Of a DNA stretch of 64,000 bases, positions 22,109 through 58,628 are shown piece by piece. The first letter of the stretch is position 1, and each line of letters opens with the position of its first letter. The stretch spans positions 2,112,001 to 2,176,000 of the forward strand of contig CATQHZ020000001.1 in the NCBI GenBank assembly GCA_958296135.2. The letters are read 5' to 3'. The translations under genes were made by a program, and so were the position numbers. A model generated the notes under the pieces. The model worked only from the letters and a program-made list of their open reading frames with translations. It ran no database searches and was not told where the DNA came from. Origin of the DNA: an uncultured Poribacteria bacterium (GTDB lineage Bacteria; Poribacteria; WGA-4E; WGA-3G).

Positions 22109-22492
22109 CGTTACGTACTCCTTTGAAAAAGGGATAGCCGGGAGTCGCGACTACCGACAGAAGTTGATTATAGGATACCACATTGATGCCAGGATTGTCA
22201 ACCTTCTTTAAACGATTCGCAGAATGAGTTCGTTTGCAAATTTTCGTCCGATGCCGACCTGTCGGAGTTTCCTTTGAACGCAGGCGAGCTTGACCTACGC
22301 GGACGGTGCAGCGACTTTTCACGGTGAGAGGGTTCCTCAAAAACGGAAAACTAAATAGTCCTGACAATTCGCAGAACGAGTTCGTCCGCAGTTTTATGAT
22401 TTTCCCACTCGCATCAGTATGGCTCAAGAACTACCATTTCAGCTAGACGCGCGAGGTGCGAACACTGCTCCGCCCCCCCCTTCGGCACCGCC

Positions 22493-40835: not shown

Positions 40836-41414
40836 TCAAACTCGCGGCAACTCAAAAAGTTCCGCAACTTGACAAACAAACCCTTCCACAACATCCTCCC
40901 CGGTGAGGGTATCGGCGCGCGTAAGCAGTGTGATGTCGGTTTCAGAACGATAGACGAGCACTGTTTTTGAGCCCGGTTCGATTACCCACACAAGCCGCGT
41001 TCCTGCCTCCAAATAGGCAAATGCTTTCTCAGCCACCTTCCGGAAAGTCTCCGACAGAGAAATCACCTCAACAGCAAGGTCTGGCGGAACTGGGAACGCC
41101 TTTATCAGGTCTGCAGGTAACCGTGGTGTTGAAACAAACGCGACATCCGGTTTTAGCACGCGCTCGCCCACTTGAAAGCCCGTTTCCGCGCAAACCACTT
41201 CACCCAGTTGATTCGCAATGACATAATTGCCGAGACGTATAAAGACTCGAGAACCAACTAGCCCGTGTTCCGCCGAGGGAGCCGCCATAGGTATCAATTT
41301 TCCTTTAACGTATTCGTATCCATCCACATCGCTCACAAGGAATTCATCCAACGTCATCGTGACATTTTCGGGGAGGATTCCTTCTGGCACGAACGGGTGA
41401 GTCTGTAGATTCAT
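40836..41414 (-). CDS. Uma2 (DUF820) family endonuclease
   Basis: E.V.G, PDVAF, PDLAVEVIS, Y..AG..LVWVI.P. Confidence 0.9.
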   Translation of the reverse strand: MNLQTHPFVPEGILPENVTMTLDEFLVSDVDGYEYVKGKLIPMAAPSAEHGLVGSRVFIRLGNYVIANQLGEVVCAETGFQVGERVLKPDVAFVSTPRLPADLIKAFPVPPDLAVEVISLSETFRKVAEKAFAYLEAGTRLVWVIEPGSKTVLVYRSETDITLLTRADTLTGEDVVEGFVCQVAELFELPRV

Positions 41415-41627
41415 TCTCTTATTCCTCCGGTGCTGTTTGTTGCATTTACCCGCTGTCTTCAATTAAAAGTATAACATATCGCAACCGAAATTGCAACAAT
41501 GCAACAAATTGATAGAAAAATATTGACATCACAGACTGAATTGGTGTATCATAAACCAATGTAGGAGAGACCTCCCGGTCTCGATTTCTCCTCGGTGTAT
41601 CATAAACCAATGAAGGAGGTAGCACCT

Positions 41628-42785: not shown

Positions 42786-43130
42786 AAAATCGCACGATAC
42801 CGTAGGGTGGGGGCCTGTCCCCCGCCATGCATGCAAAAGCCCTTTCTTTATCGCTCACCAAACGCACGCCAAAAAAAACGCACGATACCGTAGGGCGGGG
42901 GACAGGCCCCCGCTATGCATGCTAGAGCCCTTTTTTATCGCTCACCAAACGCACGCCAAAAAAAACGCACGATACCGTAGGGTGGGGGCCTGTCCCCCGC
43001 CATGCCTGTTAGCCCTTTTTCAACGCTCACCAAACGCACGACAAAAAAATCGCACGATACCGTAGGGTGGGGGCCTGTCCCCCGCCATGCCTGTTAGCCC
43101 TTTTTTTTAACGCTCACCAAACGCACGCCA
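42786..43130. repeat. Four tandem REP-containing units of about 85-90 bp
   Basis: cgcacgataccgtagggYgggg..tgtcccccgc...cgctcaccaaacgcacg repeated four times. Confidence 0.85.
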
Positions 43131-44126
43131 CAAATTTGTGGCAAGGGGAAGACTCTGAATACTTTCAATAATCCGATCCTCTCCATCATCTTCATCGCTA
43201 TTCGGCACGCGGTTGTGCTTGTCCATCCACGCGATGTTCTCTGCAACGCTTTCTGTCACAGGCGTTTGCGGGTCGAACTCAGGCAGAACCGCCGCCAACT
43301 TTGCGCCGCTGTAAATCTGCGTATGCCCGAAGTTGTCAAGCAGATGGATATACCGCTGCGTATCGATGCCGATGAGCGTATCTTGCGCTACATGCACGAA
43401 CTCTGCCGAAACACCGAGGACCGCCGCGGCCACTTCCTGCCACTCATCCCACGTGCGCGGCTGCGGGTGAACGAGGTTGTATATCTCGCCGAAGCACTCG
43501 GATTTGCCGAGCACCGCTGCAAACGCAACCCCCGCATCCCGCGATGCCAAAAATTGGAAATAGTTCGTCCCATCGCCCACAGAGATAATCGGTTTCGCTT
43601 TGCGGAGCCGGTCAATCCAGACCCCGCCGCATCCGAGCTGCCGATGTAGGGGTATCCCTGGCCCGTGCGTGTAGGACGGCTTGAAAATCGTCACGGGAAA
43701 CCCATCGCGTGCATGCGCTTCCAACAGCAGATTATCCGCCGCAATCTTGCCCAGTGCGTAATCCGAGGTGCCGTTCAACGGTGCTGTTTCCGGCAAATTT
43801 ATCCCATCAAAAGGCGGCCCGTATGTCATCACTGTTGAGCAGTGGACGAAGTGCCCGACGCGTCCCTGAAATGCCCGTATTGCGGAGGCAGTATCCTCAG
43901 CGTTGAAACTAATCATGTCGATGACAGCATCCCACTCTTCCGCGCCGACTTTGGCTTCAAAATGGACGCGCTGTCTCCTGTCTCCATAAATCACGCGCAT
44001 GTCTTCTGGCGGCACATCTACGTGCTGCCCGCGGTTAAACAGCACGACTTCATGGTTGCGCGCTTGCAACGCGGCGACAATACCGCGGCTAATGTTGCCG
44101 GTGCCGCCGATGACTAAGACTTTCAT
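43107..44126 (-). CDS. NAD-dependent epimerase/dehydratase
   Basis: VLVIGGTGNI, Y...K motif. Confidence 0.88.
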   Translation of the reverse strand: MKVLVIGGTGNISRGIVAALQARNHEVVLFNRGQHVDVPPEDMRVIYGDRRQRVHFEAKVGAEEWDAVIDMISFNAEDTASAIRAFQGRVGHFVHCSTVMTYGPPFDGINLPETAPLNGTSDYALGKIAADNLLLEAHARDGFPVTIFKPSYTHGPGIPLHRQLGCGGVWIDRLRKAKPIISVGDGTNYFQFLASRDAGVAFAAVLGKSECFGEIYNLVHPQPRTWDEWQEVAAAVLGVSAEFVHVAQDTLIGIDTQRYIHLLDNFGHTQIYSGAKLAAVLPEFDPQTPVTESVAENIAWMDKHNRVPNSDEDDGEDRIIESIQSLPLATNLWRAFGER

Positions 44127-45481
44127 TCGTTGTCTACCTCCTCGATTAACTTCACTTCGGAGTCCGTTAACCCATACAACGCGTAAACCAACGCGTCAAT
44201 CTTTTCCTCAAGGGCCGGGACTTCGCTGCTGTTCGGCTCGTCAAGGATTAACTGAACGTACTCCGCGAGGGCCGATTTCTGCTCCTCTGTCCGCTCCGCT
44301 ACCGGAAAACTCGGCAGTCGATATTCGTATCCCGGCTCGTAGAAATCGATCCAGTTCTTCGCACTCAGTGGTTTCTCATACGAGGATTGATATTGGGTTT
44401 GCGCATAGAAATGGAAAAGTTTGCCGTTCAAAATCGCCAGCAGCGAGAGGTCATCAGTCGGTATGTAACGACGACTCTTATTTAAGAGAAACGCCCCAGA
44501 TGCGTCATAGTAGGCCTGCATAGCAATCCCACCTCGATAGACAATTTTGGGATGCCGAAACTCAGGATACTCTGCACGCGCAGCAAGTTCCCAATAGAAT
44601 TCGCCTTGACGACTACGTGTTTTTAACTTATCACTATAGCCGTTGAGATGCTCGTGGATTGCCGGATATTCGTCCGCAAAAATATGCTCTGCTCCCGACT
44701 CGTTTCTGCCGGACCAGGGCCACTGTCTGAATTTGCCGCTTGGGATAAATATCAGATACTTCGGGGTCAGTTGCCACCTCTTTATCTGCGGCTTCCCAAT
44801 GGCACGTTTTATGAGCTCATCGCTTTTCGCATCCTCACCGATTAACTGCTCGCGTTTGGATTCGTCTATGACGAATGCCAAGTTGCATCCAGTTTCAATG
44901 TAATCACGGTTGAGCTCCAAAAGGTCTCCCAGTCGCGTTCCGGTATTATCAATCTTCGTCAACAACGCTTCAGACGGAACTTCCGCAATCGCTGGCGCGT
45001 TTCGTTTTGCAGGGAAGAAATCAGCCGGGATTTCATGGGCGGAGTCAATGTGGATGCGCGCCTGCTGCTCTCCCCACGAACGGATAGTCAACGCCGCACC
45101 TTCAAAGAAAGCAAACGCAAACGGACGAAAATGCTCATCAACACAGAGAAAACCGAAATCCACCGCGGTATAGCCTTGCCGCTGCAATCCTTCACTGACG
45201 TGAAACAGGAGCTTGGGATACCCTGCCTTCTCACGAAAGCGGATGAGGAACGGCAACCGAGTCCCGGAAGCGTCCCCAGCGCGAACGCGGAGCTCTTGGC
45301 ACTCAATGACCTGGGCGGCGACACCCCCTTCAAGCCGAAGATACGGTAACGGAAAGGGCCGTGCAATTTGCTCCAGCGTGGCACCTTCCGGAATAGGCAA
45401 CCCCAGTTTTTCGTCTAAAAACTGCATCAACGATGCCGCATCGCCGATGCCCTGAATATCGTCACGCGTAACGATACGCAT
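44123..45481 (-). CDS. Free-standing specificity module E (NTD + TaqI-C-like TRD)
   Basis: MRIVTRDDIQ N-terminus; FYWEL, PKIVY, LLAILN and IDALVYALYGLT motifs; no MTase motifs. Confidence 0.75.
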   Translation of the reverse strand: MRIVTRDDIQGIGDAASLMQFLDEKLGLPIPEGATLEQIARPFPLPYLRLEGGVAAQVIECQELRVRAGDASGTRLPFLIRFREKAGYPKLLFHVSEGLQRQGYTAVDFGFLCVDEHFRPFAFAFFEGAALTIRSWGEQQARIHIDSAHEIPADFFPAKRNAPAIAEVPSEALLTKIDNTGTRLGDLLELNRDYIETGCNLAFVIDESKREQLIGEDAKSDELIKRAIGKPQIKRWQLTPKYLIFIPSGKFRQWPWSGRNESGAEHIFADEYPAIHEHLNGYSDKLKTRSRQGEFYWELAARAEYPEFRHPKIVYRGGIAMQAYYDASGAFLLNKSRRYIPTDDLSLLAILNGKLFHFYAQTQYQSSYEKPLSAKNWIDFYEPGYEYRLPSFPVAERTEEQKSALAEYVQLILDEPNSSEVPALEEKIDALVYALYGLTDSEVKLIEEVDNE

Positions 45482-45684
45482 TTAGCAATGTCCTCCTATC
45501 GTTTTCGGGATTCGGTGCAGCATGGGAACGCACGCTCTTTTCTTTGAAGAATAGACGCATTCGTTGAAGCCGAGGGACCGCGAGGGACAGGCCCTCGCGC
45601 TACGAGCCAAAGTACACGCTGCCCCTCTCCGAAGGGCGAGGGCCCGGCGATCGCGAATCGCCGAGGGTTCCCCTCGCCATGCTG

Positions 45685-47043
45685 CTACCGATGTTCTTCA
45701 ATTAATGCGCGTTCCGCCGCCGTTAGCCGATACAGCGCGTAAACCAACGCGTCGATCTCTTCCTCAAGGGCCGGGACTTCGCGACTGTCGGGTTCGTCAA
45801 GGATCGACTGAACGTACTCCGCGAGGGCCGATTTCTGCGCCTCTGTCCGCTCTGCTACCGGGAAGACTTCCATGATGCTTTTCTTGAAATCCAATCGACT
45901 CCCACTTGATGAGAGACACTCAGATCTCGCCCACCAACTAAACAGTTTGCTGTTCAAAACGGCGAGCAGCGAAAGGTCTGTTGTAGGGATGAAAAATGCC
46001 GGCGTTAAGACAAGCGCGTCCGACTCTTCATAACACGCCCGCATCGAATTGCCCCGGCTATACGGATAGATAATTTTGGGGTACTCTAGCAAAGCATAAC
46101 GCCTGCTTGAAGGGAACTCCCAATAGAATTCTCCCTGTTGCGTGCGCTCCTTCAAAGCGTCTCGGTAGCCGTTTAGATAACCACTAACCGCGGGATAAGT
46201 TATAGCAAAGATGCTCTCCGCTTCTACATCGTTAAGCGCATCAGTCCAAGGCCATCGCGTGTTTAGACTGCTTGGGATAAATATCAGATGCTTTGGCTCC
46301 GCTCTCCATTTTTTTCGCGAAGGTATGTCAACCATCGGCTTTATGATGTCCGCGCTGCTAGGATGTTCGTTTAACAACCTCTCATAAGTGGACACGTCCT
46401 CTATAACGAAGGCTTGGCGGTATCCGGTGTGAACACCACTGTAAATGTTCCCATGATGCCTCAAGAGCGTTCCCACCTCCGGCAGTTTGGCTAACAAACT
46501 CTCGCGCGTAGGACTCGGATCCGGTCGTACCGGCGGCTCAAAAACGAACTCAGGAGGAAGTTCATGTTCATAAGAGACGTGGATAGTCGTATTCTCCTGA
46601 GGCCATGAAAAAATAGTCAGCTCCGCGTTCTGCCAGTCATCCTCCGCCGAATCGTTGAAGTAGGCAAACGCGAACGGTTGGAGATGCTCATCTGTACAGA
46701 TAAACCGGAAAGGGGCAGAGCCTCCGGCATTCCGCTCAAGGGCCGGACAGATGGCGCGAAGTGCAGATTCGTAGCCCTGATTGGTGTTAAATCGCACCAA
46801 GAAGAGGATCCACGGTTCAGGATTTTCCGAAGTATCTCCAGGGAAAATCTGGAGTTTCTGGCAATCCAAAAAATGATCTGCGACAGGTCCTCTCAGCCCA
46901 AGGTCCCTTGGTCTAAACCGTGGACCTGTATCTTCAAGGGTTTCACCTTCCGGGATAGGCAACCCCAGTTTTTCACGCAAAAACTGCATCAACGATGCCG
47001 CATCGCTGATACCCTGAATATCATCACGCGTAACGATACGCAT
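45685..47043 (-). CDS. Free-standing specificity module D
   Basis: Same architecture, divergent TRD; own promoter-like TTGCAG-17-TAGACT at 47149-47121. Confidence 0.75.
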   Translation of the reverse strand: MRIVTRDDIQGISDAASLMQFLREKLGLPIPEGETLEDTGPRFRPRDLGLRGPVADHFLDCQKLQIFPGDTSENPEPWILFLVRFNTNQGYESALRAICPALERNAGGSAPFRFICTDEHLQPFAFAYFNDSAEDDWQNAELTIFSWPQENTTIHVSYEHELPPEFVFEPPVRPDPSPTRESLLAKLPEVGTLLRHHGNIYSGVHTGYRQAFVIEDVSTYERLLNEHPSSADIIKPMVDIPSRKKWRAEPKHLIFIPSSLNTRWPWTDALNDVEAESIFAITYPAVSGYLNGYRDALKERTQQGEFYWEFPSSRRYALLEYPKIIYPYSRGNSMRACYEESDALVLTPAFFIPTTDLSLLAVLNSKLFSWWARSECLSSSGSRLDFKKSIMEVFPVAERTEAQKSALAEYVQSILDEPDSREVPALEEEIDALVYALYRLTAAERALIEEHR

Positions 47044-47318
47044 TTAGCAATGTCCTCCTATCGTTTTCGGGATTCGGTGCAGCATGGGGAGGATATAAGC
47101 AACATCCATTCTGACGTTAGAGTCTACCATATCTCCCCCAAAACTGCAACCGATTTTCTTTCGATTAACAGAATGAATGCGTCTTCCGTTTGGAAACGAC
47201 ACATCGTCGGAAACTAACGTCTCTTCAGGTCTGCTAGGACCTGCATGTATAAAGAAAAACGTGTTGGCCCCTCTCAAGGTCTGCTAGGACCTAAATAGAT
47301 GTTTCCAGCGACGCTCGG

Positions 47319-48824
47319 CTACCGATGTTCTTCAATTAACGCGCGTTCAGCCTCCGTTAGCCGATACAGCGCGTAAACCAACGCGTCAATCTCTTCCTCA
47401 AGGGCCGGGACTTCGCGACTGTCGGGTTCGTCAAGGATTAACTGAACGTACGCCGCAAGGGCCGCTTTCTGCGCCTCTGTCCGCTCCGCTACCGGAAAAC
47501 TCAACAGTTGAGATTTTTGTCCCGGCAGGTAGAAACTGATCCAACTCTTCGCACTCAGTGGTTTCCTAAACGAGGATTGATATCGGGCTTGCGCATAGAA
47601 ATGGAAAAGTTTGCCGTTCAAAATCGCCAGCAGCGAGAGGTCGTCAGTCGGTATGAAATAACAACTATTCTGTAAGATAAACGCCCCAGATGTGTCATAG
47701 TAGGCCTGAATAGCAATCCCACCTCGATAGACAATTTTGGGATGCCGAAACTCAGGATACTCTGCACGCGCAGCAAGTTCCCAATAGAATTCGCCTTGAC
47801 GACTACGTGTCTTTAACTTATCACTATAGCCGTTGAGATGCTCGTGGATTGCCGGATATTCGTCCGCAAAAATCTGCTCTGCTTCCGACTCGTTTCTGCC
47901 GGACCAGGGCCACTGTCTGAATTTGCCGCTTGGGATAAATATCAGATACTTCGGGGTCAGTTGCCACCTCTTTATCTGCGGCCTCCCAATGGCACGTTTT
48001 ATGAGCTCATCGCTTTTCGCATCTTCACCGATTAACTGCTCGCGTTTGGATTCGTCTATGACGAATGCCAAGTTGCATCCAGTTTCAACGTAACCACGGT
48101 TGAGCTCCCAACGGTCTCCCAGTGGCGGTCCGGTATTATCAATCTTCGCCAACAATGCATCAGACGAAGGTGAAACGACTCTCGCCAGCCCTGTCTCCTC
48201 CTGCACGGGAAGTTCCGGCACATTCAACGGAACTTCCGCATAGGAAACGACAGCGCGATCTTCAGGATCCGGCAGGTCATCCGGTCGCTCGTTGACCCCA
48301 GGCGTTACAGGTGGATCATCCGGTCCCGGAGACGGAGCGGGGAAGAAGACATCCGGTAATACATGCTCCGCACCAGTGTGAACGACCGTCTTCGCCTCTG
48401 TCCACGAAAAGACGGTTAATTCCGCGTTCTGCCAGTCACCTCCCGCCGAATCACTGAAATAGGCGAACGCGAACGGTTGATAATTCTCTCCCATACAGAT
48501 AAAACCGAAATCTGCAAGATTGCGGCCGCGCAACCTTGGTGCACCGCTCACAAGACGCAAGACTTCCGAACAGTCCTCTTCACTGCGAAATCGGATGAGG
48601 AAGATGCCGGAAGGTTCACCGGAAGCACCGCTGATTTCCTGGCAACTCAGAATCTCGCGAGCGATGTCTCCGCTGAGTCCCAGCGAATAGGGTGAAAAAT
48701 CTGCGACAATCTCTCCAAGGCCTAAACCTTCCGGAATAGGCAACCCCAGTTTTTCGTCTAAAAACTGCATCAACGATGCCGCATCGCCGATGCTTTGAAT
48801 ATCATCACGCGTAACGATACGCAT
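47319..48824 (-). CDS. Free-standing specificity module C (mosaic of B and E)
   Basis: N-domain near-identical to B, TRD near-identical to E. Confidence 0.75.
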   Translation of the reverse strand: MRIVTRDDIQSIGDAASLMQFLDEKLGLPIPEGLGLGEIVADFSPYSLGLSGDIAREILSCQEISGASGEPSGIFLIRFRSEEDCSEVLRLVSGAPRLRGRNLADFGFICMGENYQPFAFAYFSDSAGGDWQNAELTVFSWTEAKTVVHTGAEHVLPDVFFPAPSPGPDDPPVTPGVNERPDDLPDPEDRAVVSYAEVPLNVPELPVQEETGLARVVSPSSDALLAKIDNTGPPLGDRWELNRGYVETGCNLAFVIDESKREQLIGEDAKSDELIKRAIGRPQIKRWQLTPKYLIFIPSGKFRQWPWSGRNESEAEQIFADEYPAIHEHLNGYSDKLKTRSRQGEFYWELAARAEYPEFRHPKIVYRGGIAIQAYYDTSGAFILQNSCYFIPTDDLSLLAILNGKLFHFYAQARYQSSFRKPLSAKSWISFYLPGQKSQLLSFPVAERTEAQKAALAAYVQLILDEPDSREVPALEEEIDALVYALYRLTEAERALIEEHR

Positions 48825-49156
48825 TTAGCAATGTTCTCCTATCGTTTTCGGGATTCGGTGCAGCATGGGAACGCACGCGCTTCTCTTTGAAGAATAGACG
48901 CATTCGTTGAAGCCGAGGGACCGCGAGGGACAAGCCCTCGCGCTACGGCCCAAAGCACACGCCGCCCCTCTCCGTAGGGCGAGGGCCGTCACGGTCACGC
49001 CTACAGCAAACGTGCGTGTGTCGCCTCGCGAAAGCACGGTCACGTCTACAGAAAATGTGCGTGTGTCGCCCCGCGTAAACACGCTACCTTACTTACTTTA
49101 ACGTTGTCCTCTCTGCCGCCTCGCTGCAGAGATGTCCACTGCCCCTCGCCATGCTG

Positions 49157-50605
49157 CTACCGATGTTCTTCAATTAACGCGCGTTCAGCCTCCGTTAGCC
49201 GATACAGCGCGTAAACCAACGCGTCGATCTCTTCCTCAAGGGCCGGGACTTCGCTGCTGTTCGGCTCGTCAAGGATCAACTGAACGTACCCCGCAAGGGC
49301 CGCTTTCTGCTCCTCTGTCCGCTCCGCTACCGGGAAGACTTCTATGTCGCTTTTCTTGAACTTCAACAGGGTTTCACCGGGGGCACGACACTCGGATTGC
49401 GCCCACCAATGAAAAAGTTTGCTGTTCAAAATCGCGAGCAGAGAGAGATCTGTCGTGGGTATGGAAAATGTGCCGAGGAAGCGAAGCGCATCCCCTTCTA
49501 CATAACACGCCCGCATTGAACTACCATCCGGATAGATAATTCTAGGGCGGTTATCAGGACTCTGGTCATCTACCGAGAGTTCCCAATAGAATTCACCTCG
49601 GTGAAATGCAGAACGGTTTTTTAATTTATCCCTATAACGGTTCAGGTGATTGCTGATTGCGGGATAGGTTTCCGCAAAAATTCGCTCCGCGGCCGCTTCA
49701 TCTGTCGTAACTGACCAGGGCCACTGTTTGTGCCGACCGTTCGGGATCCATATCAGATACGCCCGCTGCGGCCCCCATTTTTTCTTTTTGGGAACGCGAA
49801 CCAACGGCCTCATGAGTTGGGCACTGGCAGGGTCTTCCGCGATTAACTGTTCGCGTTTGAATTCCTCAATAACGAACGCGCGGTTGAGCCTAGTGACAAT
49901 GTTGCCGCTCAAAATGGTCCATTGCTGACCCAACGGTAACCCGCCCTTTTTCAGTTTGGCTAACAAACTCTCGCGAGAATACGAAACGACTTTCAGTTTG
50001 GCTAACAAACTCTCGCGAGAATACGAAACGACAGCGAGATCTTCAGGATCCGGCGGGTCATCCGGTCGCTCGTTGACCCCAGGCGTTACAGGTGGATCAT
50101 CCGGTCCCGGAGACGGAGCGGGGAAGAAGACATCCGGTAATACATGCTCCGCACTAGTGTGAACGACCGTCTTCGCCTCTGTCCACGAAAAGACGGTTAA
50201 TTCCGCGTTCTGCCAGTCACCTCCCACCGAATCACTGAAATAGGCGAACGCGAACGGTTGATAATTCTCTCCCATACAGATAAAACCGAAATCTGCAAGA
50301 TTGCGGCCGCGCAACCTTGGTGCACCGCTCACAAGACGCAAGACTTCCGAACAGTCCTCTTTACTGCGAAATCGGATGAGGAAGATGCTGGAAGGTTCAC
50401 CAGAAGCACCGCTGATTTCCTGGCAACTCATAATCTTGCGGGCGATGTCTCCGCTGAGTCCCAGCGAATAGGGTGAAAAATCTGCGACAATCTCTCCAAG
50501 GCCTAAACCTTCCGGAATAGGCAACCCCAGTTTTTCGTCTAAAAACTGCATCAACGATGCCGCATCGCCGATGCCCTGAATATCGTCACGCGTAACGATA
50601 CGCAT
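49157..50605 (-). CDS. Free-standing specificity module B
   Basis: Same architecture; 42-bp tandem duplication at 49949-50032. Confidence 0.75.
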   Translation of the reverse strand: MRIVTRDDIQGIGDAASLMQFLDEKLGLPIPEGLGLGEIVADFSPYSLGLSGDIARKIMSCQEISGASGEPSSIFLIRFRSKEDCSEVLRLVSGAPRLRGRNLADFGFICMGENYQPFAFAYFSDSVGGDWQNAELTVFSWTEAKTVVHTSAEHVLPDVFFPAPSPGPDDPPVTPGVNERPDDPPDPEDLAVVSYSRESLLAKLKVVSYSRESLLAKLKKGGLPLGQQWTILSGNIVTRLNRAFVIEEFKREQLIAEDPASAQLMRPLVRVPKKKKWGPQRAYLIWIPNGRHKQWPWSVTTDEAAAERIFAETYPAISNHLNRYRDKLKNRSAFHRGEFYWELSVDDQSPDNRPRIIYPDGSSMRACYVEGDALRFLGTFSIPTTDLSLLAILNSKLFHWWAQSECRAPGETLLKFKKSDIEVFPVAERTEEQKAALAGYVQLILDEPNSSEVPALEEEIDALVYALYRLTEAERALIEEHR

Positions 50606-50810
50606 TTAGCAATGTCCTCCTATCGTTTTCGGGATTCGGTGCAGCATGGGAACGCACGCGCTTTTCTTTGAAGAATAGACGCATTCGTTGAAGCCGAGGG
50701 ACCGCGAGGGACAGGCCCTCGCGCTACGGGCCAAAGCACACGCCGCCCCTCTCCGAAGGGCGAGGGGCCGGCGAGCGCGAATCGCCGAGGGTTCCCCCCT
50801 CGCCATGCTG

Positions 50811-53800
50811 CTACCGATTTTCTTCGATTAACTCGCGCTCAGCCTCCGTTAACCCATACAACGCGTAAACCAACGCGTCGATCTCCTCCTCAAGGGCCGG
50901 GACTTCGTGGCTGTCGGGTTCGTCAAGGATTAACTGAACGTACTCTGCAAGGGCCGCTTTCTGCTCCTCTGTCCGCTCCGCTATGCGAACGTTCTGCATG
51001 TTCGCCTTCGTGAAATACAGAATGGATTTCCCGGGTGCCTTGCATTCGGTTCGCGCGTACCAACCGAAAAGTTTGCTGTTTAAAATCGCCAGCAGGGACA
51101 GATCTTCTGTCGGTATGAAGTGGATGGAACCTAAAGCAAATGCCCCTGTGGTGTCATAGCATGCCCGCAGAGAGCCGCCACTAAGCGGGTAGACAATCTT
51201 GGACGGTTGAAACGCCGGAGATTTGTCACGCCCCCCAAATTCCCAAAAGAATTCTCCGTTATGAGCAGCGTCCGGGTCCCTTAAAATGTCCCTATAGTTG
51301 CTGAGGTGTGCATGGATTGCCGGAAAGGTCTTGGCAAAAATCCGCTCTGCCTCGGCTTCATCTCTCGCCTTGGTCCAAAACCACTGTTTGTGCCGGCTGT
51401 TTGGAATGTAGATTAGTGATGCCGCTTCCGCTCTCCATTTGGTTCGACGAGGTATACGAATTAGCGACTTTAGGAGCTGAGCACTTTCAGGATCGGCATC
51501 AATCAACTCCCCACGTTTTGATGCGTCTATAACGTAAGCCCGATCGCATCCGGTTACAACCCCGCCGAAAATGTTACAATGCCGACTCAACGGTGCTCCG
51601 ACATTTTTCAACTTGGCCAACAAGGCCTCACGCGAAGTCGGCTCAACCCGATGAGGTGATGGCGGAACAGGAATAGGCTTCGGTTCCGGACCGTCAGAAC
51701 CTTCCCGAAAAAAGAGACGCGCCAAATCGTGTTCATAGGCTGTGTGGATAGAGGTGTTTTCCTCCGTCCACGAACAGATAGTCAACTCCGCGGACTGCAA
51801 GCCTTCGGATGCCGAATCGCTGAAGTAAGCAATAGCGAACGGTTGGAAATCCTCACCCGCGCAGATAAAGCGGCAATCGGCCAACTCGTAACCCTGCTGT
51901 TGCAGTCCATCACTGACCTGGCGCAGGACTCCCGGATAACCCGCTTTACTATTAAACCGGACGAGGAAAGGTTTTTGGTTTGCTGAGGTACCCCCAGGAC
52001 GAACCCTGATTTCATAGCAATCTTTAACCTGTTCTGCGACAGAATCGCCCAGGCCAAGGAAAACTAAAGGCAATGGAAGTGCAATCCGTTCAAAAACTGC
52101 ATCTTCCCGGATAGGCAACCCCAGTTTTTCGTCTAAAAATTGCATCAACGATGCCGCATCGCCGATGCCCTGAATATCGTCACGGGTAATGATACGCATA
52201 GGCATATCCTCCTTTTCTGGCGGCAATTCGCCGGGTTCGGGTAACGGTATGCCAGCATCGCAATACGTTTTCTTGATTAACGCAATCTCGGTATCCGTTA
52301 ACCCATAGACTTCGTAGACTAACTCATCGATAGCATGCTCAAGTGCAGGCACCGCATCTCCTGCAGGATCGGCGAGGATCCGCGCAACCCAGCGCGTGAG
52401 TTGTGCCCGCTGCTCCGAGGTCATCTCCGCGATTGGGAAACGTTTCATGTAGAGCGCGATAAAGCGTAAACTGCCACCCGCCCACGCATCGTTGAAGCTC
52501 TGAAACTTGTAGCGAGCATACCAATCAAACAGTGTGCTATTCAAAATCGCAAGCAAGGATAAGTCTGTCGTCGGTATGAAGTAGGCAGTGGCAACACTAA
52601 TCGTTTGCGCCGTGTCATAACTGGCGTATAGAGATTGCGCCGTTTCGGGCCAGACGATTTTCGGCTTTTCAAACTCAGCTCGATAACTGCACGAACGCAA
52701 TTCCCAATAAAATTTACCGCGAGCAGTCCGGCGAATCAGTTCCTCGCGATAGCGTTTCAGATGCTGGTAAACCGCCGGATAGCACTCCGCAAAGATTCGC
52801 TCCGCCTCTGTGTCATTTTCGGCATTCGACCAGGGCCAATCCGCGTTTGTGCTGCTTGCAATCGCTATCAGATACTCGTTTGACTCTTTCGCGTCCCACT
52901 TCCGGGTATAACGTCCCCGCAGCAGTGGCTTTATGAATGCACTGCTCTGGGGGGAATCAGCGATGAGTTGTTTGCGCGTGGAAGAATCTATCACGAACGC
53001 AGGGTCGTATCCGGTGACAAGCCCGCGGTAAATATCGCCGTTGACATACTCTTCCAACAGTGTCCCGGTATCTTGAAGTTTTTCAAGCAGCGCGAATGTC
53101 TCAGGGGCAGCCAAAATCCACGCGTCAGGAGAGAGTTGGGAAATCTGCATCGGGAACACCTGTTCTTGAAACGCCTCCCTGATGTCAAATTTCTTGGCGT
53201 TTTCTCTTAAAGTTGCCGCGGAGAAGAGCTGATCTGGGCTGGGACAACGATTTTCAGCGAGGACGATGCACGTGTCAACTGCCGCCTCAAAAACGGAGAT
53301 GCTCCCAAAATCCAAAAGGTTCTTCAGTGACATTTCTGTGGCAAGAAACTGGCGTAGGTTTTCGCCATAGGCCGCCCGGAAAAACTTATTGGTGCAGATA
53401 TAGGTCAAGATGCCATCGGGCTTCAGTAGCTCGGCTGCGCGTTTGTAGAAATAGACGCTAATATCCGCAGGCCTAAAGAAGAAGTCGCCAAAATAGGATT
53501 GCAATGCCGGTGCGAGATTGACTACCATCTCATGCCGGTAATCAACATACGGCGGATTGCCGATGACGATGTCAAACCCATCCTTCACACCGAACATCTC
53601 CTCCGCATCGAAGAAATCCGCGCTGGCGTTCCTGTCGTAGGGATTCCACTGCGCGATTTTCGTTGCTTCGTCAACGACACCGGTTCGCGCCTCCAGAGCC
53701 CATTCCGTAGACAATTCGGTCAGCGCGTTGACTAATTCGCCCCGGCATGCCTCTTCTTCGTTCATCAGCGAGAGTTTCATCTGCCGGGTGTTCGCGCTGA

Positions 53801-55856
53801 AGTAGTTCTCGCGAATCTTTGAAATTTGCTGGCGTTTCTGCTCAATCACGTCTGTCTCAAGGAGCATTTGGAAATCGGGTTTCTTGAGCCCGATGAGCGT
53901 ATCGGCGGCGACGAATCGGATCTCCAAGTTCGGCAGCGGTTGGATACCGTAGTTGTCGTCAGCGTTATCGTTCGGCACCTGCTCAATGATAAGCGAGATG
54001 AAAAAGCGCAGTTTAGCAATCGTCACGGCGATGGGTTGGATGTCTACCCCGTAGATGCTCTTTTGAATGAGGTAGAGTTTCCGTCCGTAGTTGTTATGCC
54101 GATTTTCTTCGGCGAAAGCCTTCTCAATCGCCGCAATCGCCAAGTTCCGGACGATAGCATCCGGAATCAGATATGCCTGCTGAATTTGGTACTGTTTCCA
54201 CCGTTTGTTCCGCCGGTCAAGTTTTTTGAGGATAAGCACCAATTTGTTCAGAATGCCCATCGGGAAGGCACCTGAGCCGACGGCCGGGTCGAGCAGCTTG
54301 AGCTCGTCTATCGCTTGGATGAGTTGCGTTACCTCACTTTCGCGGATGAGGTGTTCGGTCTGCGAATCCGCTTCCCCCTCTGCTTCATAAGCGAGCAAAT
54401 CGTCGCGGAGGCGTTCTTCCAGAAAGTCCCTATTTCCATCAAACGGTTCGACCTTCTGCAGGAAATAGGCGATGAGTGCCTCGTCTACCATGTAGTCAAC
54501 AATCTGGCGCGGTGTGTAGTAAGAGCCGGTGGATTTCCGCGCGCTGGATTGCGTTTCAGGGTTGTAGTCGCCGAGCAGGTTCTCAAACACGCGCCCGAGG
54601 AGTTCGGGTTCAAGCGCGACTTCCTGTTCAATCGGCGTGTTTTCCTCCACGGTAAACTTATAGCGCGAAAAGAGCGGGAAGATACCTTTTCCATCCTGAA
54701 AAAAGAGTTTGTCCGGCACGTGCAGTTTCTGCCGCTCGTTTTCGTTATCGGTGAAGCAATCGATGCGTCCGCCGCCGTCGCGCGTCGCCTCAAACGTATC
54801 AAGGCAGTCAAACAGCCCGCCGTTGACAAATGGCACCTGCTTGAGTTTTTCGAGAAATGCATCGGGTTCGTGCAACAGATCGGCGTAGCGATATTTGCTT
54901 GCGTCTCGATGGTTTCGGTTATCCGCAGTGCTGAAGGCGCGTTCGGTTATCGGCGTATTCAGCGTCGCGAAGAAAAGGTTTTGCAGGATGGCCTTGTAGT
55001 ATGTGTCATCAGGGGACGCTTCAACAAAGAGCTCGACAGGGATCAGGCCTTTCTCCTTCAGAAACCAGATGAAGAGCAGTCGGGTAATCAAGCGGATGAC
55101 CTGGGGTTCAGTCTCGCCATCTGGGAAACGGCATTCCGATTTTGCCCACTCATACCACTCAAACAGTTCTCGATAAAACTTGCGGTTGAGGGTTTCGGTG
55201 TTGAGCACACCTTCCCACGCGTTGTGTAGCGTATCAAAATTGCGAACGTCCTCGGTCTCAATGAGAGCCTCCAGATGCAATTCGGCAAGAATATCCAGAT
55301 GCGCGCGGTGCGGGTTGCGCAACTTGATGTCCTTGATGAGCGTCACTTTTTCCAGCACCTGTTTCGTCGCGTCGCGTTTGTGCCATCGGCGGTTGATAAT
55401 CGCCAGCGTCAGGACATCGCCGTATCGGAACATCACCAGAATCGGCACTACGAAGCGGCCGTTGACAAAGCGGGTGATATTGGCAAGCTGTGTGCGCGTA
55501 TAGTTCTCCCCACTGAGTTGCATAGCGACGAAGATATAGGAGAGCCTCAGATTTTCGTCAAACTTCGCGGTTTCAAACAGCATTTCCTGCTGATTGATCT
55601 CGCTGTCGGTAATCTGGAAGATGAGGTGGAATTTCTCCCAATCGTCAACACAGAGTTTATCGGCGGCATCGGCAGGTGCTTGCGTGCGGCGCGCCGCCGC
55701 GGCCTCCCGGAGGGTGCCGAACAGCTGCTCATCTAAACCCTTGTTCCCGGTTCTATCGCTGTGGTAACCGAGGGCGTTGAGGAAGCGCGTGGCAGCCTCG
55801 CGCAGCGGCGTTTCCGCGAAGGAGCTTATACAGTTTTGGATATCGGTTCTGTTCAT
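50811..55856 (-). CDS. Type IIG/Eco57I-like N6-adenine methyltransferase with TRD and fused extra module A
   Basis: NGGLF, GSYYTP, DPAVGSGAF (motif I), GNPPY (motif IV), TaqI-C-like TRD, then MRIITRDDIQ module from 52199. Confidence 0.88.
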   Translation of the reverse strand: MNRTDIQNCISSFAETPLREAATRFLNALGYHSDRTGNKGLDEQLFGTLREAAAARRTQAPADAADKLCVDDWEKFHLIFQITDSEINQQEMLFETAKFDENLRLSYIFVAMQLSGENYTRTQLANITRFVNGRFVVPILVMFRYGDVLTLAIINRRWHKRDATKQVLEKVTLIKDIKLRNPHRAHLDILAELHLEALIETEDVRNFDTLHNAWEGVLNTETLNRKFYRELFEWYEWAKSECRFPDGETEPQVIRLITRLLFIWFLKEKGLIPVELFVEASPDDTYYKAILQNLFFATLNTPITERAFSTADNRNHRDASKYRYADLLHEPDAFLEKLKQVPFVNGGLFDCLDTFEATRDGGGRIDCFTDNENERQKLHVPDKLFFQDGKGIFPLFSRYKFTVEENTPIEQEVALEPELLGRVFENLLGDYNPETQSSARKSTGSYYTPRQIVDYMVDEALIAYFLQKVEPFDGNRDFLEERLRDDLLAYEAEGEADSQTEHLIRESEVTQLIQAIDELKLLDPAVGSGAFPMGILNKLVLILKKLDRRNKRWKQYQIQQAYLIPDAIVRNLAIAAIEKAFAEENRHNNYGRKLYLIQKSIYGVDIQPIAVTIAKLRFFISLIIEQVPNDNADDNYGIQPLPNLEIRFVAADTLIGLKKPDFQMLLETDVIEQKRQQISKIRENYFSANTRQMKLSLMNEEEACRGELVNALTELSTEWALEARTGVVDEATKIAQWNPYDRNASADFFDAEEMFGVKDGFDIVIGNPPYVDYRHEMVVNLAPALQSYFGDFFFRPADISVYFYKRAAELLKPDGILTYICTNKFFRAAYGENLRQFLATEMSLKNLLDFGSISVFEAAVDTCIVLAENRCPSPDQLFSAATLRENAKKFDIREAFQEQVFPMQISQLSPDAWILAAPETFALLEKLQDTGTLLEEYVNGDIYRGLVTGYDPAFVIDSSTRKQLIADSPQSSAFIKPLLRGRYTRKWDAKESNEYLIAIASSTNADWPWSNAENDTEAERIFAECYPAVYQHLKRYREELIRRTARGKFYWELRSCSYRAEFEKPKIVWPETAQSLYASYDTAQTISVATAYFIPTTDLSLLAILNSTLFDWYARYKFQSFNDAWAGGSLRFIALYMKRFPIAEMTSEQRAQLTRWVARILADPAGDAVPALEHAIDELVYEVYGLTDTEIALIKKTYCDAGIPLPEPGELPPEKEDMPMRIITRDDIQGIGDAASLMQFLDEKLGLPIREDAVFERIALPLPLVFLGLGDSVAEQVKDCYEIRVRPGGTSANQKPFLVRFNSKAGYPGVLRQVSDGLQQQGYELADCRFICAGEDFQPFAIAYFSDSASEGLQSAELTICSWTEENTSIHTAYEHDLARLFFREGSDGPEPKPIPVPPSPHRVEPTSREALLAKLKNVGAPLSRHCNIFGGVVTGCDRAYVIDASKRGELIDADPESAQLLKSLIRIPRRTKWRAEAASLIYIPNSRHKQWFWTKARDEAEAERIFAKTFPAIHAHLSNYRDILRDPDAAHNGEFFWEFGGRDKSPAFQPSKIVYPLSGGSLRACYDTTGAFALGSIHFIPTEDLSLLAILNSKLFGWYARTECKAPGKSILYFTKANMQNVRIAERTEEQKAALAEYVQLILDEPDSHEVPALEEEIDALVYALYGLTEAERELIEENR

Positions 55857-56152
55857 AAATCGTCAGAGCTCTCTTTGCGTTTGCGCCGCGAGAGGGACAG
55901 CCCTCCGAAGCCGCTAACTACGGCCATATAAAACCCGACGTCATACCACCAGCCTGTATTAAGCGGTTCATAGACGCGGATATCCGAGTTGAAGATGCCC
56001 CAAATCAGCGATACCGGGGCGAGCCAGCCGTGCCAGATGCCCCAGAAAAAGCCGGCAGGCTTTTCTACGGTGTGCTTCCCATCGCCGGGGAGGCACCCGC
56101 TCTGCAGCATCAGTACCGTTAACAGCAGGATACAAAGCAACCGTCTTGCCAT
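55853..56152 (-). CDS. Small membrane lipoprotein-like protein
   Basis: SGC lipobox-like; PAGFFWGIWHGW...YE..N.GWWYD.GF; overlaps the MTase start. Confidence 0.7.
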   Translation of the reverse strand: MARRLLCILLLTVLMLQSGCLPGDGKHTVEKPAGFFWGIWHGWLAPVSLIWGIFNSDIRVYEPLNTGWWYDVGFYMAVVSGFGGLSLSRRKRKESSDDL

Positions 56153-56155
56153 GAC

Positions 56156-56545
56156 TTATGCCTCTTGCGATTCTTCCTGTTCAAGCCGCTTGAACCATGA
56201 GCTGATCTGGCGAGGCGTCGCATTGGGGACCGCCGCTTGCATCTTTTTGAGAATCTCCCGCTTGGACATCCCCGGTGTCTTCGCTAGGAAGACGGTTCGA
56301 GCTTTCGCATACAAGACCGGATCGACTTTTCTGCGGCCGACACGGGTGCGGAAGTTCCGCGGTCCTTCGTAGTTCAGCGCGTCAAGGGCAGCGTTCCACT
56401 CGTCGGTTTTGATCCAACGGTATAAGGTGCGTGAGGAAACGCCGATGGCGAGGGCGATCGCATCGGCGTTCCTATTACCGCCAGCGAAGATGTCCACCGC
56501 GGTCTTCATTTTTTTCTTTCTTACATCGCTTGGTAGTGCAGGCAT
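56156..56545 (-). CDS. Helix-turn-helix DNA-binding protein
   Basis: IALAIGVSSRTLYRWIK; second HTH-like segment near the C-terminus. Confidence 0.65.
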   Translation of the reverse strand: MPALPSDVRKKKMKTAVDIFAGGNRNADAIALAIGVSSRTLYRWIKTDEWNAALDALNYEGPRNFRTRVGRRKVDPVLYAKARTVFLAKTPGMSKREILKKMQAAVPNATPRQISSWFKRLEQEESQEA

Positions 56546-56555
56546 TTCTCTCTTT

Positions 56556-56638
56556 CCTATCTTTTTTGAAATAGGCCTATCTTTTTTGAAATAGGCCTAT
56601 CTTTTTTGAAATAGGCCTATCTTTTTTGAAATAGGCCT
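56556..56638. repeat. Four perfect tandem 20-bp units cctatcttttttgaaatagg
   Basis: Directly visible; each unit is bounded by the inverted pentamer cctat/atagg. Confidence 0.9.
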
Positions 56639-56774
56639 GACGCAACTCCGACACCGTAGGTGCGGTTTGCAACCGCGCCTACCGGTGGAGAATGACGGTA
56701 TTTGCGTCATACCAAATTAGGCTGCTTCGCAGGAACCCGAACGACTCAGGTTAATTGGATCTAAGTCCTATTTT

Positions 56775-57869
56775 TTAGTCTATTATCGTCACAACACGTT
56801 TATTTGTCAAGAAAAAATCGGTTTGCGGATGCTCAGCATCAACAATGGCGCGTGCCAATGCCCAATCTAACCGTCGGCGATATTGGCCATCGCGGCGTAA
56901 CCCCTTGAACGCTGTCAGAAAAACGTCGTGCGTTCTCTCGCGGATGGTGGTGAGACGTGCATTGAGATTCTCTACATCTACCTGCCACGGGACGCGGAGT
57001 TTCGTGATGGAACGTCCCTGATAACGGACAGGATACCCCGCTAACTCCGCCGGCGGACAAAAACAGATGGAGGCGCAAACCGTATTGTCTACGGCGACGA
57101 GCCCCACATTTCCCGTCGGTTCATTGAACACAATCTCGCGATTGCGCGAAGGCATCGGCAGGTGCGTGCGGAGCTCCGAGAGGGTTCCGAGGAACTGATT
57201 GTTGCGCCATATTCTCACTGAAGGGACGCGCGTGGAAAGCGTATTTACTGTCGGTGCAGGCCCGAACAGCGCGAGCCCAACTGGATGTTCGGTATCCGCA
57301 AACATAAACGTTTCCGGCGGCCGCGCTTTTTCCACATCCCCCGGGAGGCGCGCTTTGGCAGCGCGCGCCTGTATGTCCACCGGTTGCATTTGTGGAACTA
57401 ATGAGACAAAATCGTGCAACCGGTGCAGGAACAGCCTACTCCGAATGAACGCCTCTGGGATAATCGCCGCTACCCACTTACAATTTGCCAAGCACTTCTC
57501 CAACGCGTATTTGTAAAGATCATCGTGTTGGATATCGCGTGGAAACGGCAGTCCCCGGCGCGTCGCGGAGTTGCGCGCCAGCCACGGCGGGTTTGTAATG
57601 CACACCTCAAACCCTCTCGGAAAATCAGCGAGTGTATCGCGTCGCCGGACCTCGGCGGCGGCGGGCTCAATGTCAAAAAGGGCCCACTCTCGGCACTGCA
57701 ACCGCGCTTCACTTAGCAGCCGTGGAATGCTGTTATCACCGGCGAAAGGTTCCAACGCGTGCTGCTGGTTTAAGTTGAGTGCCGCTGCCCACGCGCGGAA
57801 GGGTTTCAACTGAAACGGATTTCCGCGGGTGTAGTAGCGGCCCGTTGCACGTTTTTCCTCTATATGCAT
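56775..57869 (-). CDS. Amino-methyltransferase-like protein
   Basis: GRYYT, LEPFAG (motif I-like), ITNPPW (motif IV-like). Confidence 0.65.
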   Translation of the reverse strand: MHIEEKRATGRYYTRGNPFQLKPFRAWAAALNLNQQHALEPFAGDNSIPRLLSEARLQCREWALFDIEPAAAEVRRRDTLADFPRGFEVCITNPPWLARNSATRRGLPFPRDIQHDDLYKYALEKCLANCKWVAAIIPEAFIRSRLFLHRLHDFVSLVPQMQPVDIQARAAKARLPGDVEKARPPETFMFADTEHPVGLALFGPAPTVNTLSTRVPSVRIWRNNQFLGTLSELRTHLPMPSRNREIVFNEPTGNVGLVAVDNTVCASICFCPPAELAGYPVRYQGRSITKLRVPWQVDVENLNARLTTIRERTHDVFLTAFKGLRRDGQYRRRLDWALARAIVDAEHPQTDFFLTNKRVVTIID

Positions 57870-57872
57870 CGT

Positions 57873-58628
57873 TTATTCAGGTATCTCCGGCCAGTTATAT
57901 TCCGGTGCGTACCCTAAATCCGCTTCCGCCTGCTTCCAATCGAAACGTGCATCGGTGCGGCCGGCGACAGCGTGATATGCGCCATACGTCACCGTTTCTG
58001 TCTCAATGGCGCGTCCTACGCACTGCGCCACATCCCTCGGATCGACGTAAACGAACCACGGGCCCGTGACGACATCTGGTGCCGACGGCCCCGGATTATG
58101 CCCATCGCCCGCGATGACACCGGGCCGGATGTGAATCACGCTGAGCCCATGCGCCTGATGATACGCGAGACAGAGCTGCTCGCCGAGCTGCTTCGCCAGC
58201 GCGTAACGGATGTCACCTTTGCTGAAGTGGACAGCATCGCCCTCTCGATATGGTAACTCGCCGCCGGGTGCCGGTGGGCACGCAGAGATGCTTGAGATGT
58301 TCACCAGTTTTTGCACGCCTTGATGCACGCACGCTTCCGCCACATGCCACGTGCCTTTCACCATCACATCTGCATAGAGTGAGGCGGGTTTACCGTGCCG
58401 CTCCCGAACCAACGCGACAAGATGAACAACAGCATCTTGTCCCGCACACGCTGCCTCAACTTCGTCTATCTTCGTAACATCCGTTCTGATAAAGCGAATG
58501 TCCGCAAAATCGCGACTCGGTTCAACAATATCCGCCAGCGTGAGTTGGTATGAGGATTGCAACCGTTCAATAACAAATCGCGCGAGATATCCAGCCGCAC
58601 CGGTGATGAGAATTTTTTCAATAGTCAT
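57873..58628 (-). CDS. NAD-dependent epimerase/dehydratase
   Basis: ILITGAAGYL, YALAK. Confidence 0.88.
   Translation of the reverse strand: MTIEKILITGAAGYLARFVIERLQSSYQLTLADIVEPSRDFADIRFIRTDVTKIDEVEAACAGQDAVVHLVALVRERHGKPASLYADVMVKGTWHVAEACVHQGVQKLVNISSISACPPAPGGELPYREGDAVHFSKGDIRYALAKQLGEQLCLAYHQAHGLSVIHIRPGVIAGDGHNPGPSAPDVVTGPWFVYVDPRDVAQCVGRAIETETVTYGAYHAVAGRTDARFDWKQAEADLGYAPEYNWPEIPE

Follow-up and report, generated by a model that had tools for sequence, protein, structure and literature searches.

Restriction-modification specificity diversifies through the exchange of target recognition domains (TRDs) in catalytic proteins, or by means of HsdS subunits. Shufflons use inverted partial copies together with a recombinase, and in Type IIB systems each S subunit is HsdS-like and carries two TRDs, the RM chain itself having none. 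The assembly of BsaXI has been given as (RM)2S, and DrdV has been reported to need several DNA-bound molecules brought together in order to cut. For TRD movement in Helicobacter pylori, conserved flanks have been described as handles for homologous recombination (PMC3467074), and sponge symbionts have been reported to be rich in defence genes (PMC5099237). Here we analysed a window of 64,000 nucleotides from an uncultured Poribacteria bacterium (contig CATQHZ020000001.1, positions 2,112,001 to 2,176,000) and describe an array at 44123-55856, in which a TaqI/MmeI-type TRD is freed from the methyltransferase and joined to a probable dimerising N-terminal domain (NTD). This protein, called the module below, has long been kept in one lineage, has multiplied, and in one genus is tied to a Type IIG-like enzyme. 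Our preferred reading, with a rough probability of 0.45, is that the modules are expressed and read DNA without being catalytic, forming dimers via the NTD, and that they were ancestrally stand-alone, one copy having been tied to the IIG-like enzyme and thereby giving others a route for joining it.

The array and its fused enzyme

Five consecutive minus-strand open reading frames (ORFs) fill 44123-55856, namely one gene of 1681 aa and four free genes of 452-501 aa. The initial annotation had counted five copies of the module here, one fused and four free, and the ORFs bear out this count, strand and placement. The parts of the array are listed below.

50811-55856, minus strand: P0001, 1681 aa, Type IIG-like enzyme (residues 1-1219) followed in frame by module 1 (residues 1220-1681)
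53289-54059, minus strand: Eco57I-type N6-adenine methyltransferase domain of P0001 (residues 600-856; PF07669, E 1.3e-33)
52269-53108, minus strand: P0001's own TRD and C-terminal helices (residues 917-1196)
52200-52250, minus strand: fusion linker in P0001, homologous to the free-module leader
50811-52199, minus strand: module 1, the fused copy, 462 aa; NTD 1220-1384, TRD 1408-1681 (P0001 numbering)
49157-50605, minus strand: module 2 (P0002), 482 aa; NTD 1-169, TRD 209-482
47319-48824, minus strand: module 3 (P0003), 501 aa, chimeric
45685-47043, minus strand: module 4 (P0004), 452 aa; NTD 1-175, TRD 176-452; the copy used for folding and for the dimer test
45482-45684, minus strand: intergenic unit, a GC-rich element resembling repetitive extragenic palindromes (REP-like) after the module 4 stop, then an AGGAGGA leader before module 5
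44123-45481, minus strand: module 5 (P0005), 452 aa; its stop overlaps the epimerase start by 4 nt (ATGA)

The IIG-like part of P0001 (residues 1-1219) matched the PADLOC model REase_MTase_IIG with an E of 6.7e-112, the match beginning at residue 211. DPAVGSGAF and NPPY, motifs I and IV of an N6-adenine methyltransferase, are readable in the translation. TaqI_C was matched in two stretches (Pfam, E 3.3e-18, best stretch 1058-1142), and Protein Data Bank (PDB) sequence matches of this TRD were CamA, BseCI and TaqI. P0001 has a gamma-class methyltransferase with a TRD C-terminal to it in the same chain, as a Type IIG enzyme does. Its N-terminal 210 residues belong to a family other than the NTD, with unnamed clusters as Atlas neighbours. 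Relative to the leader of a free module, the fusion linker is shorter by 2 nt and lacks the TAA but retains AGGAGGA, and the fusion in a second species of the genus (G002) has a junction of the same kind. Because the junction still holds AGGAGGA, module 1 could also be made alone. The IIG-like core has a 1202-aa paralogue (61% identity) at another place in the genome (G000:C1:988135-991743; L038:4135-7743); it stops at the normal C-terminus, and no module was found beside it within its 13-kb locus.

Module anatomy

Each module is made up of an NTD, a proline-rich linker and a TaqI/MmeI-type TRD with C-terminal helices. A five-way alignment (515 columns, mean column identity 66%) agreed with the description of conserved starts and ends around a variable middle, the starts (~30 residues) and ends (~50 residues) being near-identical among the five copies. 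The short motifs attributed to every copy were found as described in the others (WPW, AFVI), but not in the fused one, which reads WFW and AYVI. The last 275 residues of each module are homologous to P0001's TRD plus C-terminal helices, and module 4 residues 177-450 align with P0001 residues 917-1196 at 45% identity (E 1e-65), as expected from the claim that each module holds a TRD like the enzyme's own. The claimed loss of the methyltransferase motifs was likewise seen, since the alignment contains neither motif I nor motif IV and Pfam gave no methyltransferase family match in any of the five modules. PADLOC matches of the modules were all confined to the TRD part of IIG models, and PF12950 is carried by most module homologues. 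No HsdS-type organisation was found, each module having one TaqI-type TRD and no further match to a Pfam family at E<=0.01.

An AlphaFold model of module 4 made with 80 homologues had a predicted local distance difference test score (pLDDT) of 87.5. It comprises an alpha/beta NTD (residues 1-165), a disordered proline-rich linker of low confidence (pLDDT <50 at residues 166-174) and a TRD that ends in three helices. Foldseek matches of this model lay in the TRD part only, to the TRDs of M.BseCI, CamA, MmeI, BrxX/PglX and BpuSI (E 4e-12 to 6e-4), with a probability of 1.00 for BseCI, CamA and MmeI. By sequence and fold match, the module TRD belongs to the TaqI/MmeI type, notwithstanding the Pfam score that is given with the interpretation below.

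The NTD folded alone reached a pLDDT of 76.7. Its best VIA-align Z of 5.0 is inside that tool's noise range, and the rows for DrdV (Z 3.6) and BpuSI (Z 2.9), each matched by its N-terminal domain, stood amid many unrelated ones. The Atlas look-up gave a best score of 0.82, under the level of a usable lead, and a PDB sequence search with the module profile gave 0 matches. The invariant residues of the NTD are hydrophobic ones and two Cys. A nuclease role for the NTD was considered, and the results lean against it, the D...(D/E)xK pattern not being seen in 57 wider family members and the fold scores being at noise level.

A 12-pair hairpin followed by a T-run lies inside codons 11-22 of all five modules. 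It is terminator- or attenuator-like but coding, and may be just a reflection of the conserved peptide.

52142-52168, 50548-50574, 48767-48793, 46986-47012 and 45424-45450, minus strand: hairpins with T-run, one per module

Enzymes of ~1050-1085 aa in related genomes (for example P0009) begin with the NTD, which is followed there by a connector, an Eco57I-type methyltransferase and a TaqI-type TRD. A profile built from 23 NTDs was searched against 1.84 billion representative proteins and matched 596 clusters at E<=1e-3, 319 of them at E<=1e-10. Among the best 150 of the 596 clusters, the match started within the first 32 residues in 147; the exceptions were P0132 (from residue 64), P0194 (from 279) and P0001 (from 1220). 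All 14 sampled NTD proteins of at least 960 aa had an N6-methyltransferase domain, which was Eco57I in 13 and, in the fourteenth, N6_Mtase with Type_ISP_C and GmrSD. These results show that the modules correspond to the NTD, TRD and C-terminal helices of an Eco57I/MmeI-like enzyme without its helical connector and methyltransferase. The homology of the NTD to the N-terminal domain of Eco57I-type enzymes upholds the initial annotation's description of the modules as "NTD + TRD minus MTase" proteins, in which MTase stands for methyltransferase.

Predicted pairing through the NTD

Two copies of module 4, modelled together from an 80-row alignment, gave a median score of 0.47, compared with 0.00 for the best of 3 controls. 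At least 83% of the contacts were shared between runs, and the partner had a pLDDT of 82 or more. When the tool was calibrated, 20 of 30 solved homo-pairs attained the mark, as did 1 of 23 proteins solved as single chains. The predicted interface is wholly in the NTD (residues 1-6, 26-29 and 66-170), with strand 141-148 set against residues 151-160 of the partner copy. Because there is no similar solved fold, the score is unlikely to reflect a known complex that the model had learnt. The prediction supports dimerisation of the modules via the NTD, and modules 2 and 3 should pair because they have a common NTD. ORFs of ~180 aa consisting of the NTD only lie immediately upstream of NTD-bearing Eco57I-type enzymes of 1082 aa and 856 aa in two genomes (L039:6255-6797 in G017; L040:12034-12579 in G025), and overlap the enzyme start at least in G017. 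Such ORFs beside NTD-bearing enzymes would be expected of a pairing domain.

The module occupies a variable slot in Poribacteria

Source names on the homologues place the module-bearing group in Candidatus Poribacteria, which are sponge symbionts. NTD matches were found in 20 of 36 family genomes, and the module stands between orf99 and an epimerase gene in 20 of the 20 relatives' loci having modules. The family-wide gene order is epimerase(251), small methyltransferase-like gene, orf99, slot, epimerase(339) and PhyH, the last two forming an operon. Within this conserved gene order of uncultured sponge symbionts, the slot alone varies and has clear borders. In the window the slot is framed by the following genes.

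56775-57869, minus strand: P0006, small methyltransferase-like core gene with motifs EPFAGDN and NPPW; flanking context
55853-56152, minus strand: orf99 (P0109), lipoprotein-like small membrane protein; upstream slot border, its stop overlapping the P0001 start
43107-44126, minus strand: NAD-dependent epimerase gene; downstream slot border

A single module with no adjacent IIG gene was found at 17 of the 20 loci, most of which had no other cargo gene detected. Because 20 relatives' loci hold the module in the slot and 17 of them are single, the module gene is older than the IIG gene at the slot and is normally alone. The notion of a library assembled around this methyltransferase does not survive this comparison, as the module predates the IIG gene. 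G002 has the same IIG-module fusion plus one free module. Elsewhere, the slot holds NTD-TRD-TRD within one ORF (G006), or NTD-TRD-TRD followed by a TRD-only ORF (L060). In G022, one of the 17 single-module loci, a DprA-type winged helix is inserted in the module, and an AAA_35 gene precedes it. At one further locus (L116) only a 37-residue module remnant is left. The five-copy array of the window is the largest among 21 loci, and arrays of separate whole-module genes (5 and 2 copies) were found only in the genus with the fusion. Several module-bearing genomes had one NTD match only, so no further NTD-bearing enzyme was detectable in them with that query.

The slot content was read in eight genomes sampled from those without an NTD match. 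The slot was empty in six (G004, G005, G016, G033, G034 and G036) and held an AAA_35 gene with a weak PD-(D/E)xK match in the other two (G012 and G028), accompanied in G012 by an IS605 TnpB. AAA_35 may be a second kind of module partner. The AAA_35 genes of the slot lie at L043:2575-4224 (G012), L047:9643-11268 (G028) and L027:8707-9879 (G022); in G012 and G028 the weak match, PD-(D/E)xK/NERD, is at the C-terminus, and in G022 the gene is shorter and overlaps the start of the NTD-DprA_WH-TRD gene.

P0006, a sixth relevant gene, sits just beyond the range 44123-55856. Its homologue is a single-copy core gene of ~330-364 aa in 36 of 36 family genomes, with a C-terminal domain of ~200 aa that has no family assigned, and a PDB sequence search with P0006 gave 0 matches. 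The P0006-orf99-module synteny had raised this protein as an obligate catalytic partner of the module. This was rejected, given P0006 in all 36 genomes versus the NTD in 20, and given a slot that is empty or filled with other cargo in 8 of 8 sampled genomes keeping P0006.

Between P0006 and orf99 lies a gene for a 129-aa helix-turn-helix protein (56156-56545, minus strand) with weak IS630-transposase-like matches, which has no counterpart at the same place in the relatives' loci examined. A 20-nt palindromic unit, CCTATCTTTTTTGAAATAGG, is repeated exactly in tandem, in four to five copies, between this gene and the small methyltransferase-like gene (56556-56655). Further out, the window contains a Uma2-family putative endonuclease 2.6 kb from the array (40836-41462, minus strand; Pfam E 4e-30; PADLOC candidate PDC-S03), an IS605 OrfB/TnpB-like gene (7834-9168, plus strand), and two 134-aa retropepsin-like aspartyl protease ORFs with a 123-aa ORF between them (21477-22897, minus strand).

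Origin of the array and recombination within it

A tree was built from 76 TRDs. Modules contributed 32 of them, and the other 44 came from enzymes with a methylase, found in Poribacteria and a few further phyla. Six identical TRDs had been collapsed (82 to 76), and L001-L024 and L049 had been excluded as duplicates. The 32 module TRDs formed one clade on a long stem of 0.53, with a support of 100 in the Shimodaira-Hasegawa-like approximate likelihood ratio test (SH-aLRT), and the tree indicates that they are without exchange with the TRDs of catalytic enzymes. Within the clade, the seven TRDs of the genus (five of the window, two of G002) formed a sub-clade (SH-aLRT 97), so the array grew by in-place duplication within the genus. 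The module 2 TRD pairs with the G002 fused copy (SH-aLRT 98) and the G002 free copy groups with the TRDs of modules 3 and 5 (SH-aLRT 100); those of modules 1 and 4 are on long separate branches. There are four TRD types and four NTD types among the five modules.

Sliding-window comparison showed 94-100% DNA identity between modules 2 and 3 over the NTD to about residue 180, then ~50-60%, and 95-99% identity between modules 3 and 5 over the TRD. On this evidence module 3 is chimeric, with modules 2 and 5 as its sources, and it was excluded as such from the table of synonymous differences. In all module pairs the first 15 codons have 89-100% and the last ~50 codons 79-97% DNA identity. Within the array, the proportion of synonymous differences (pS) was 0.17 for residues 1-33 and 0.28 for residues 396-452, compared with 0.66-0.67 in the NTD and TRD bodies. 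Against the single modules of three other genera it was 0.73-0.81 in all four segments. Because pS at the ends is low inside the array only, gene conversion or repeated crossover, and not protein selection alone, maintains their similarity. The corresponding nonsynonymous value (pN) in the DNA-reading domain of the modules was 0.33. Module 2 also contains an exact 42-nt tandem duplication (49949-50032), which gives a 14-aa repeat at the linker/TRD boundary. These results show that the recombination handles are the first ~33 codons, the linker/TRD boundary and the last ~57 codons.

No inverted repeat of at least 40 nt was found in 43000-58000, and no recombinase family among the 43 scanned proteins of the window. 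Exchange therefore proceeds by general homologous recombination between direct repeats. With neither feature present and five full-length ORFs on one strand, the array does not have the organisation of a phase-variable shufflon. The suggestion that free modules act as donors was right in that they recombine with one another, but they are not donors for the enzyme's own TRD, which lies in a separate clade. Swapping of the fused copy, also proposed, is possible only as a deletion between direct repeats. The fused module of G002 has 79.8% DNA identity to module 2 and 64.2% to module 1, and a module-2-type copy at that position is what would be left if the DNA from the conserved start of module 1 to that of module 2 were deleted. 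We regard this evolutionary picture of the module and its array as solid.

Copies of the intergenic unit 45482-45684 also occur after modules 1 and 2, with 94-96% identity. The REP-like GC-rich element, ~55-110 nt long, lies in the intergenic stretches that follow module stops (45571-45684, 48900-49020 and 50700-50800) and has at least 100 matches in the genome; its summed contig word depth is ~27x that of the flanks.

Gene integrity, selection and assembly

The initial annotation had called the reading frames intact and their leaders RBS-like, that is, resembling ribosome-binding sites. Both points hold, with no frameshift or stop in 5 of 5 copies and AGGAGGA 8-9 nt before every module ATG, that of the fused copy included. 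The check for purifying selection that it proposed gave ratios of nonsynonymous to synonymous substitution (dN/dS) below 1 in module pairs (0.28-0.49). The ratio was 0.53 for the NTD of modules 2 and 3 and 0.78, from few differences, for the TRD of modules 3 and 5. For the IIG core it was 0.20 between two species (dS 0.8), and for the epimerase 0.08. Judged by these ratios, the modules are under purifying selection but fast-evolving. The fusion has been retained in the second species, G002, the open frames being 1681 and 1684 aa. Promoter and terminator scans were not above shuffled expectation, with 9 found versus a mean of 10.3 and 18 versus 19.2.

Read evidence came from the contigs of four runs of one sample, which is probably the source of the assembly, and is not independent support. 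In each of the four runs, depth was near-equal over the enzyme and the unique parts of modules 1, 2, 4 and 5 (122-137 in X1), and segments common to two modules had ~1.6-1.8x the depth of unique parts. The read depth agrees with the assembly as given. No well-anchored alternative junction was found in the run contigs, and no contig bridges a whole repeat. Candidate structural-variant joints had sides of only 22-25 letters inside the REP-like element, with its at least 100 genome copies, and were not counted.

Interpretation

An old Poribacteria module gene stood in the slot when a 1219-aa IIG-like gene entered it in this genus. The IIG-like gene became fused in frame to the first module, after which the module was amplified in place to five copies in this genome. 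In the preferred reading, a module dimer formed via the NTD would present two TRDs to DNA. With module 1 tethered to the enzyme, NTD pairing would let a second enzyme molecule or a free module join it, the surest pair being module 3 with module 2. Joined modules might add readers of DNA sites or bridge two sites, and the methylation pocket itself would not be re-programmed. In that case the array could supply one enzyme with alternative site readers or adaptors. DrdV would be, by analogy, a precedent for extra DNA-bound partners, and a bridging role is reasonable because DrdV cuts only with several DNA-bound molecules assembled. A more specific version is rather unlikely: free modules would dock NTD to NTD on the fused module as catalytically inert plug-in readers of a new class, giving the one enzyme a choice of second-site readers from the four NTD and four TRD types, cutting or protection would depend on two-site combinations, and the handles would make new NTD/TRD combinations.

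Several results weigh against the preferred reading. The dimer is a matter of model confidence and not a measurement, and in a comparison of four NTD types the predicted interface was conserved like the rest of the NTD (53.5% vs 52.7%), with no cross-pairing signal. The NTD had no significant fold neighbour (Foldseek best E 0.1) and is without an evident effector, having no conserved PD-(D/E)xK-type residues. TaqI_C scores on the modules were sub-threshold in Pfam (18.7-25.9 bits versus a cutoff of 26.5), with none for module 5, and residues 1-210 of P0001 matched no Pfam or PADLOC model. Because 17 of 20 loci have a single module without an adjacent IIG gene, the ancestral function needs no such enzyme beside it, and the fusion could be incidental.

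This last point leads to the possibility that the modules are stand-alone DNA-binding dimers unrelated to the IIG-like enzyme, acting for example as a defence sensor or adaptor for an unlinked effector, or in site-blocking or regulation, and that the fusion is a tolerated insertion accident. It would fit the single-module loci, mostly without other detected cargo, the module genomes in which that query detected no NTD-bearing enzyme, the DprA-type winged-helix module of G022 that follows an AAA_35 ATPase gene, and the AAA_35/PD-(D/E)xK-like cargo in the slot of two genomes. Nevertheless we consider it somewhat unlikely, because the fusion is conserved in two species despite a core dS of 0.8, whole-module arrays were found only in the fusion-bearing genus, and rapid TRD change (pN 0.33) fits an arms race better than a fixed regulator. 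If the free copies served mainly as donors for recombination, forming a cassette library that replaces the fused module and yields switchable population variants, this would account for ends homogenised inside the array and not against other genera, for the chimeric module 3 and the 42-nt duplication at the linker/TRD boundary, and for the module-2-type fused copy of G002. All copies are direct, however, so replacement by crossover deletes the intervening copies irreversibly, and neither inverted repeats nor a recombinase gene were found. Each copy, in contrast to silent cassettes, has its own Shine-Dalgarno sequence, an intact frame and a dN/dS below 1. Most relatives have just one copy and hence none to exchange it with, and no well-anchored alternative junction appeared in the run contigs. 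We therefore hold this explanation to be quite unlikely.

The initial annotation's other suggestion, that free modules are trans specificity subunits re-programming the sequence methylated by the enzyme, has in its favour that the module TRDs are homologous to the enzyme's own and of four different types, and that separate specificity subunits are known in Type I and Type IIB (BsaXI) enzymes. It appears very doubtful, given that P0001 retains an intact TRD in cis, that the flexible linker at residues 166-174 would hardly fix a TRD against the catalytic pocket as TaqI-type enzymes require, and that module TRDs stand on a separate stem with no sign of exchange with catalytic ones. Modules also occur without an adjacent methylase except for the P0006-type core gene, which is present in 36 of 36 genomes, module or not. 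An assembly artefact that sets strain variants in tandem, or decaying duplicates without function, could be suspected from the long repeats, which no short-read contig bridges, and from modules evolving faster than their neighbours (dN/dS 0.28-0.49 vs 0.08 for the epimerase). Yet the unique parts have near-equal depth in the four runs of the one sample, the independently assembled genome G002 of the same genus has the fusion and one free module, and no copy carries a frameshift or stop, whereas the remnant at L116 shows what decay looks like. We regard artefact or decay as highly improbable.

Engineering of specificity in the MmeI family has already been studied, and the modules, if they bind DNA specifically, would be natural, compact and easily re-assorted sequence readers of that family. 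In that case they would also reveal a new route by which a single enzyme acquires several sets of targets.

Comparison with known systems

The initial annotation did not recognise the architecture as described, and we likewise did not find it in open-access full texts and bioRxiv. What appears new against these sources is a family of an IIG-type NTD plus a TaqI-type TRD without methyltransferase, its tandem arrays, and its fusion behind a complete IIG-like enzyme. The Eco57I-type methyltransferase, the TaqI-type TRD and recombination handles round recognition domains are of known kinds.

Type IIG/IIL enzymes (Eco57I, MmeI, BpuSI, DrdV) resemble P0001 in its Eco57I-type methyltransferase with a TaqI-type TRD, and resemble the modules in that the module TRD superposes on those of MmeI and BpuSI and the NTD family forms the N-terminus of such enzymes. 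Unlike them, the modules have no connector and no methyltransferase, and P0001 continues beyond its normal C-terminus into a second NTD and TRD, being one of two proteins with a deeply internal NTD among the best 150 of 596 matches. BREX (bacteriophage exclusion) PglX/BrxX likewise has a large Eco57I-type methyltransferase and a TaqI-type TRD, its N-terminal part being non-nuclease, and gave structural matches with E 1.4e-4 to 1.2e-3. P0001, however, scores far under the family cutoffs, its BREX-type NCBIfam matches being weak (59.8 bits versus a cutoff of 500), and no other BREX gene was found in the 64-kb window.

Type IIB systems with a separate S subunit (BcgI, BsaXI) share the combination of a catalytic RM chain and a separate non-catalytic recognition subunit. 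They differ in that P0001 keeps its own TRD and the module TRD is of another fold family, with an NTD in addition. Type I hsdS cassettes, shufflons and the TRD movement of H. pylori resemble the array in having variable recognition domains with conserved flanks and chimeric array copies. The array departs from the hsdS cassettes and shufflons in that its modules have one TaqI-type TRD each, no HsdS Pfam match and a variable NTD, and in that its copies, without inverted repeats or a recombinase, are complete and direct, each with its own ribosome-binding site.

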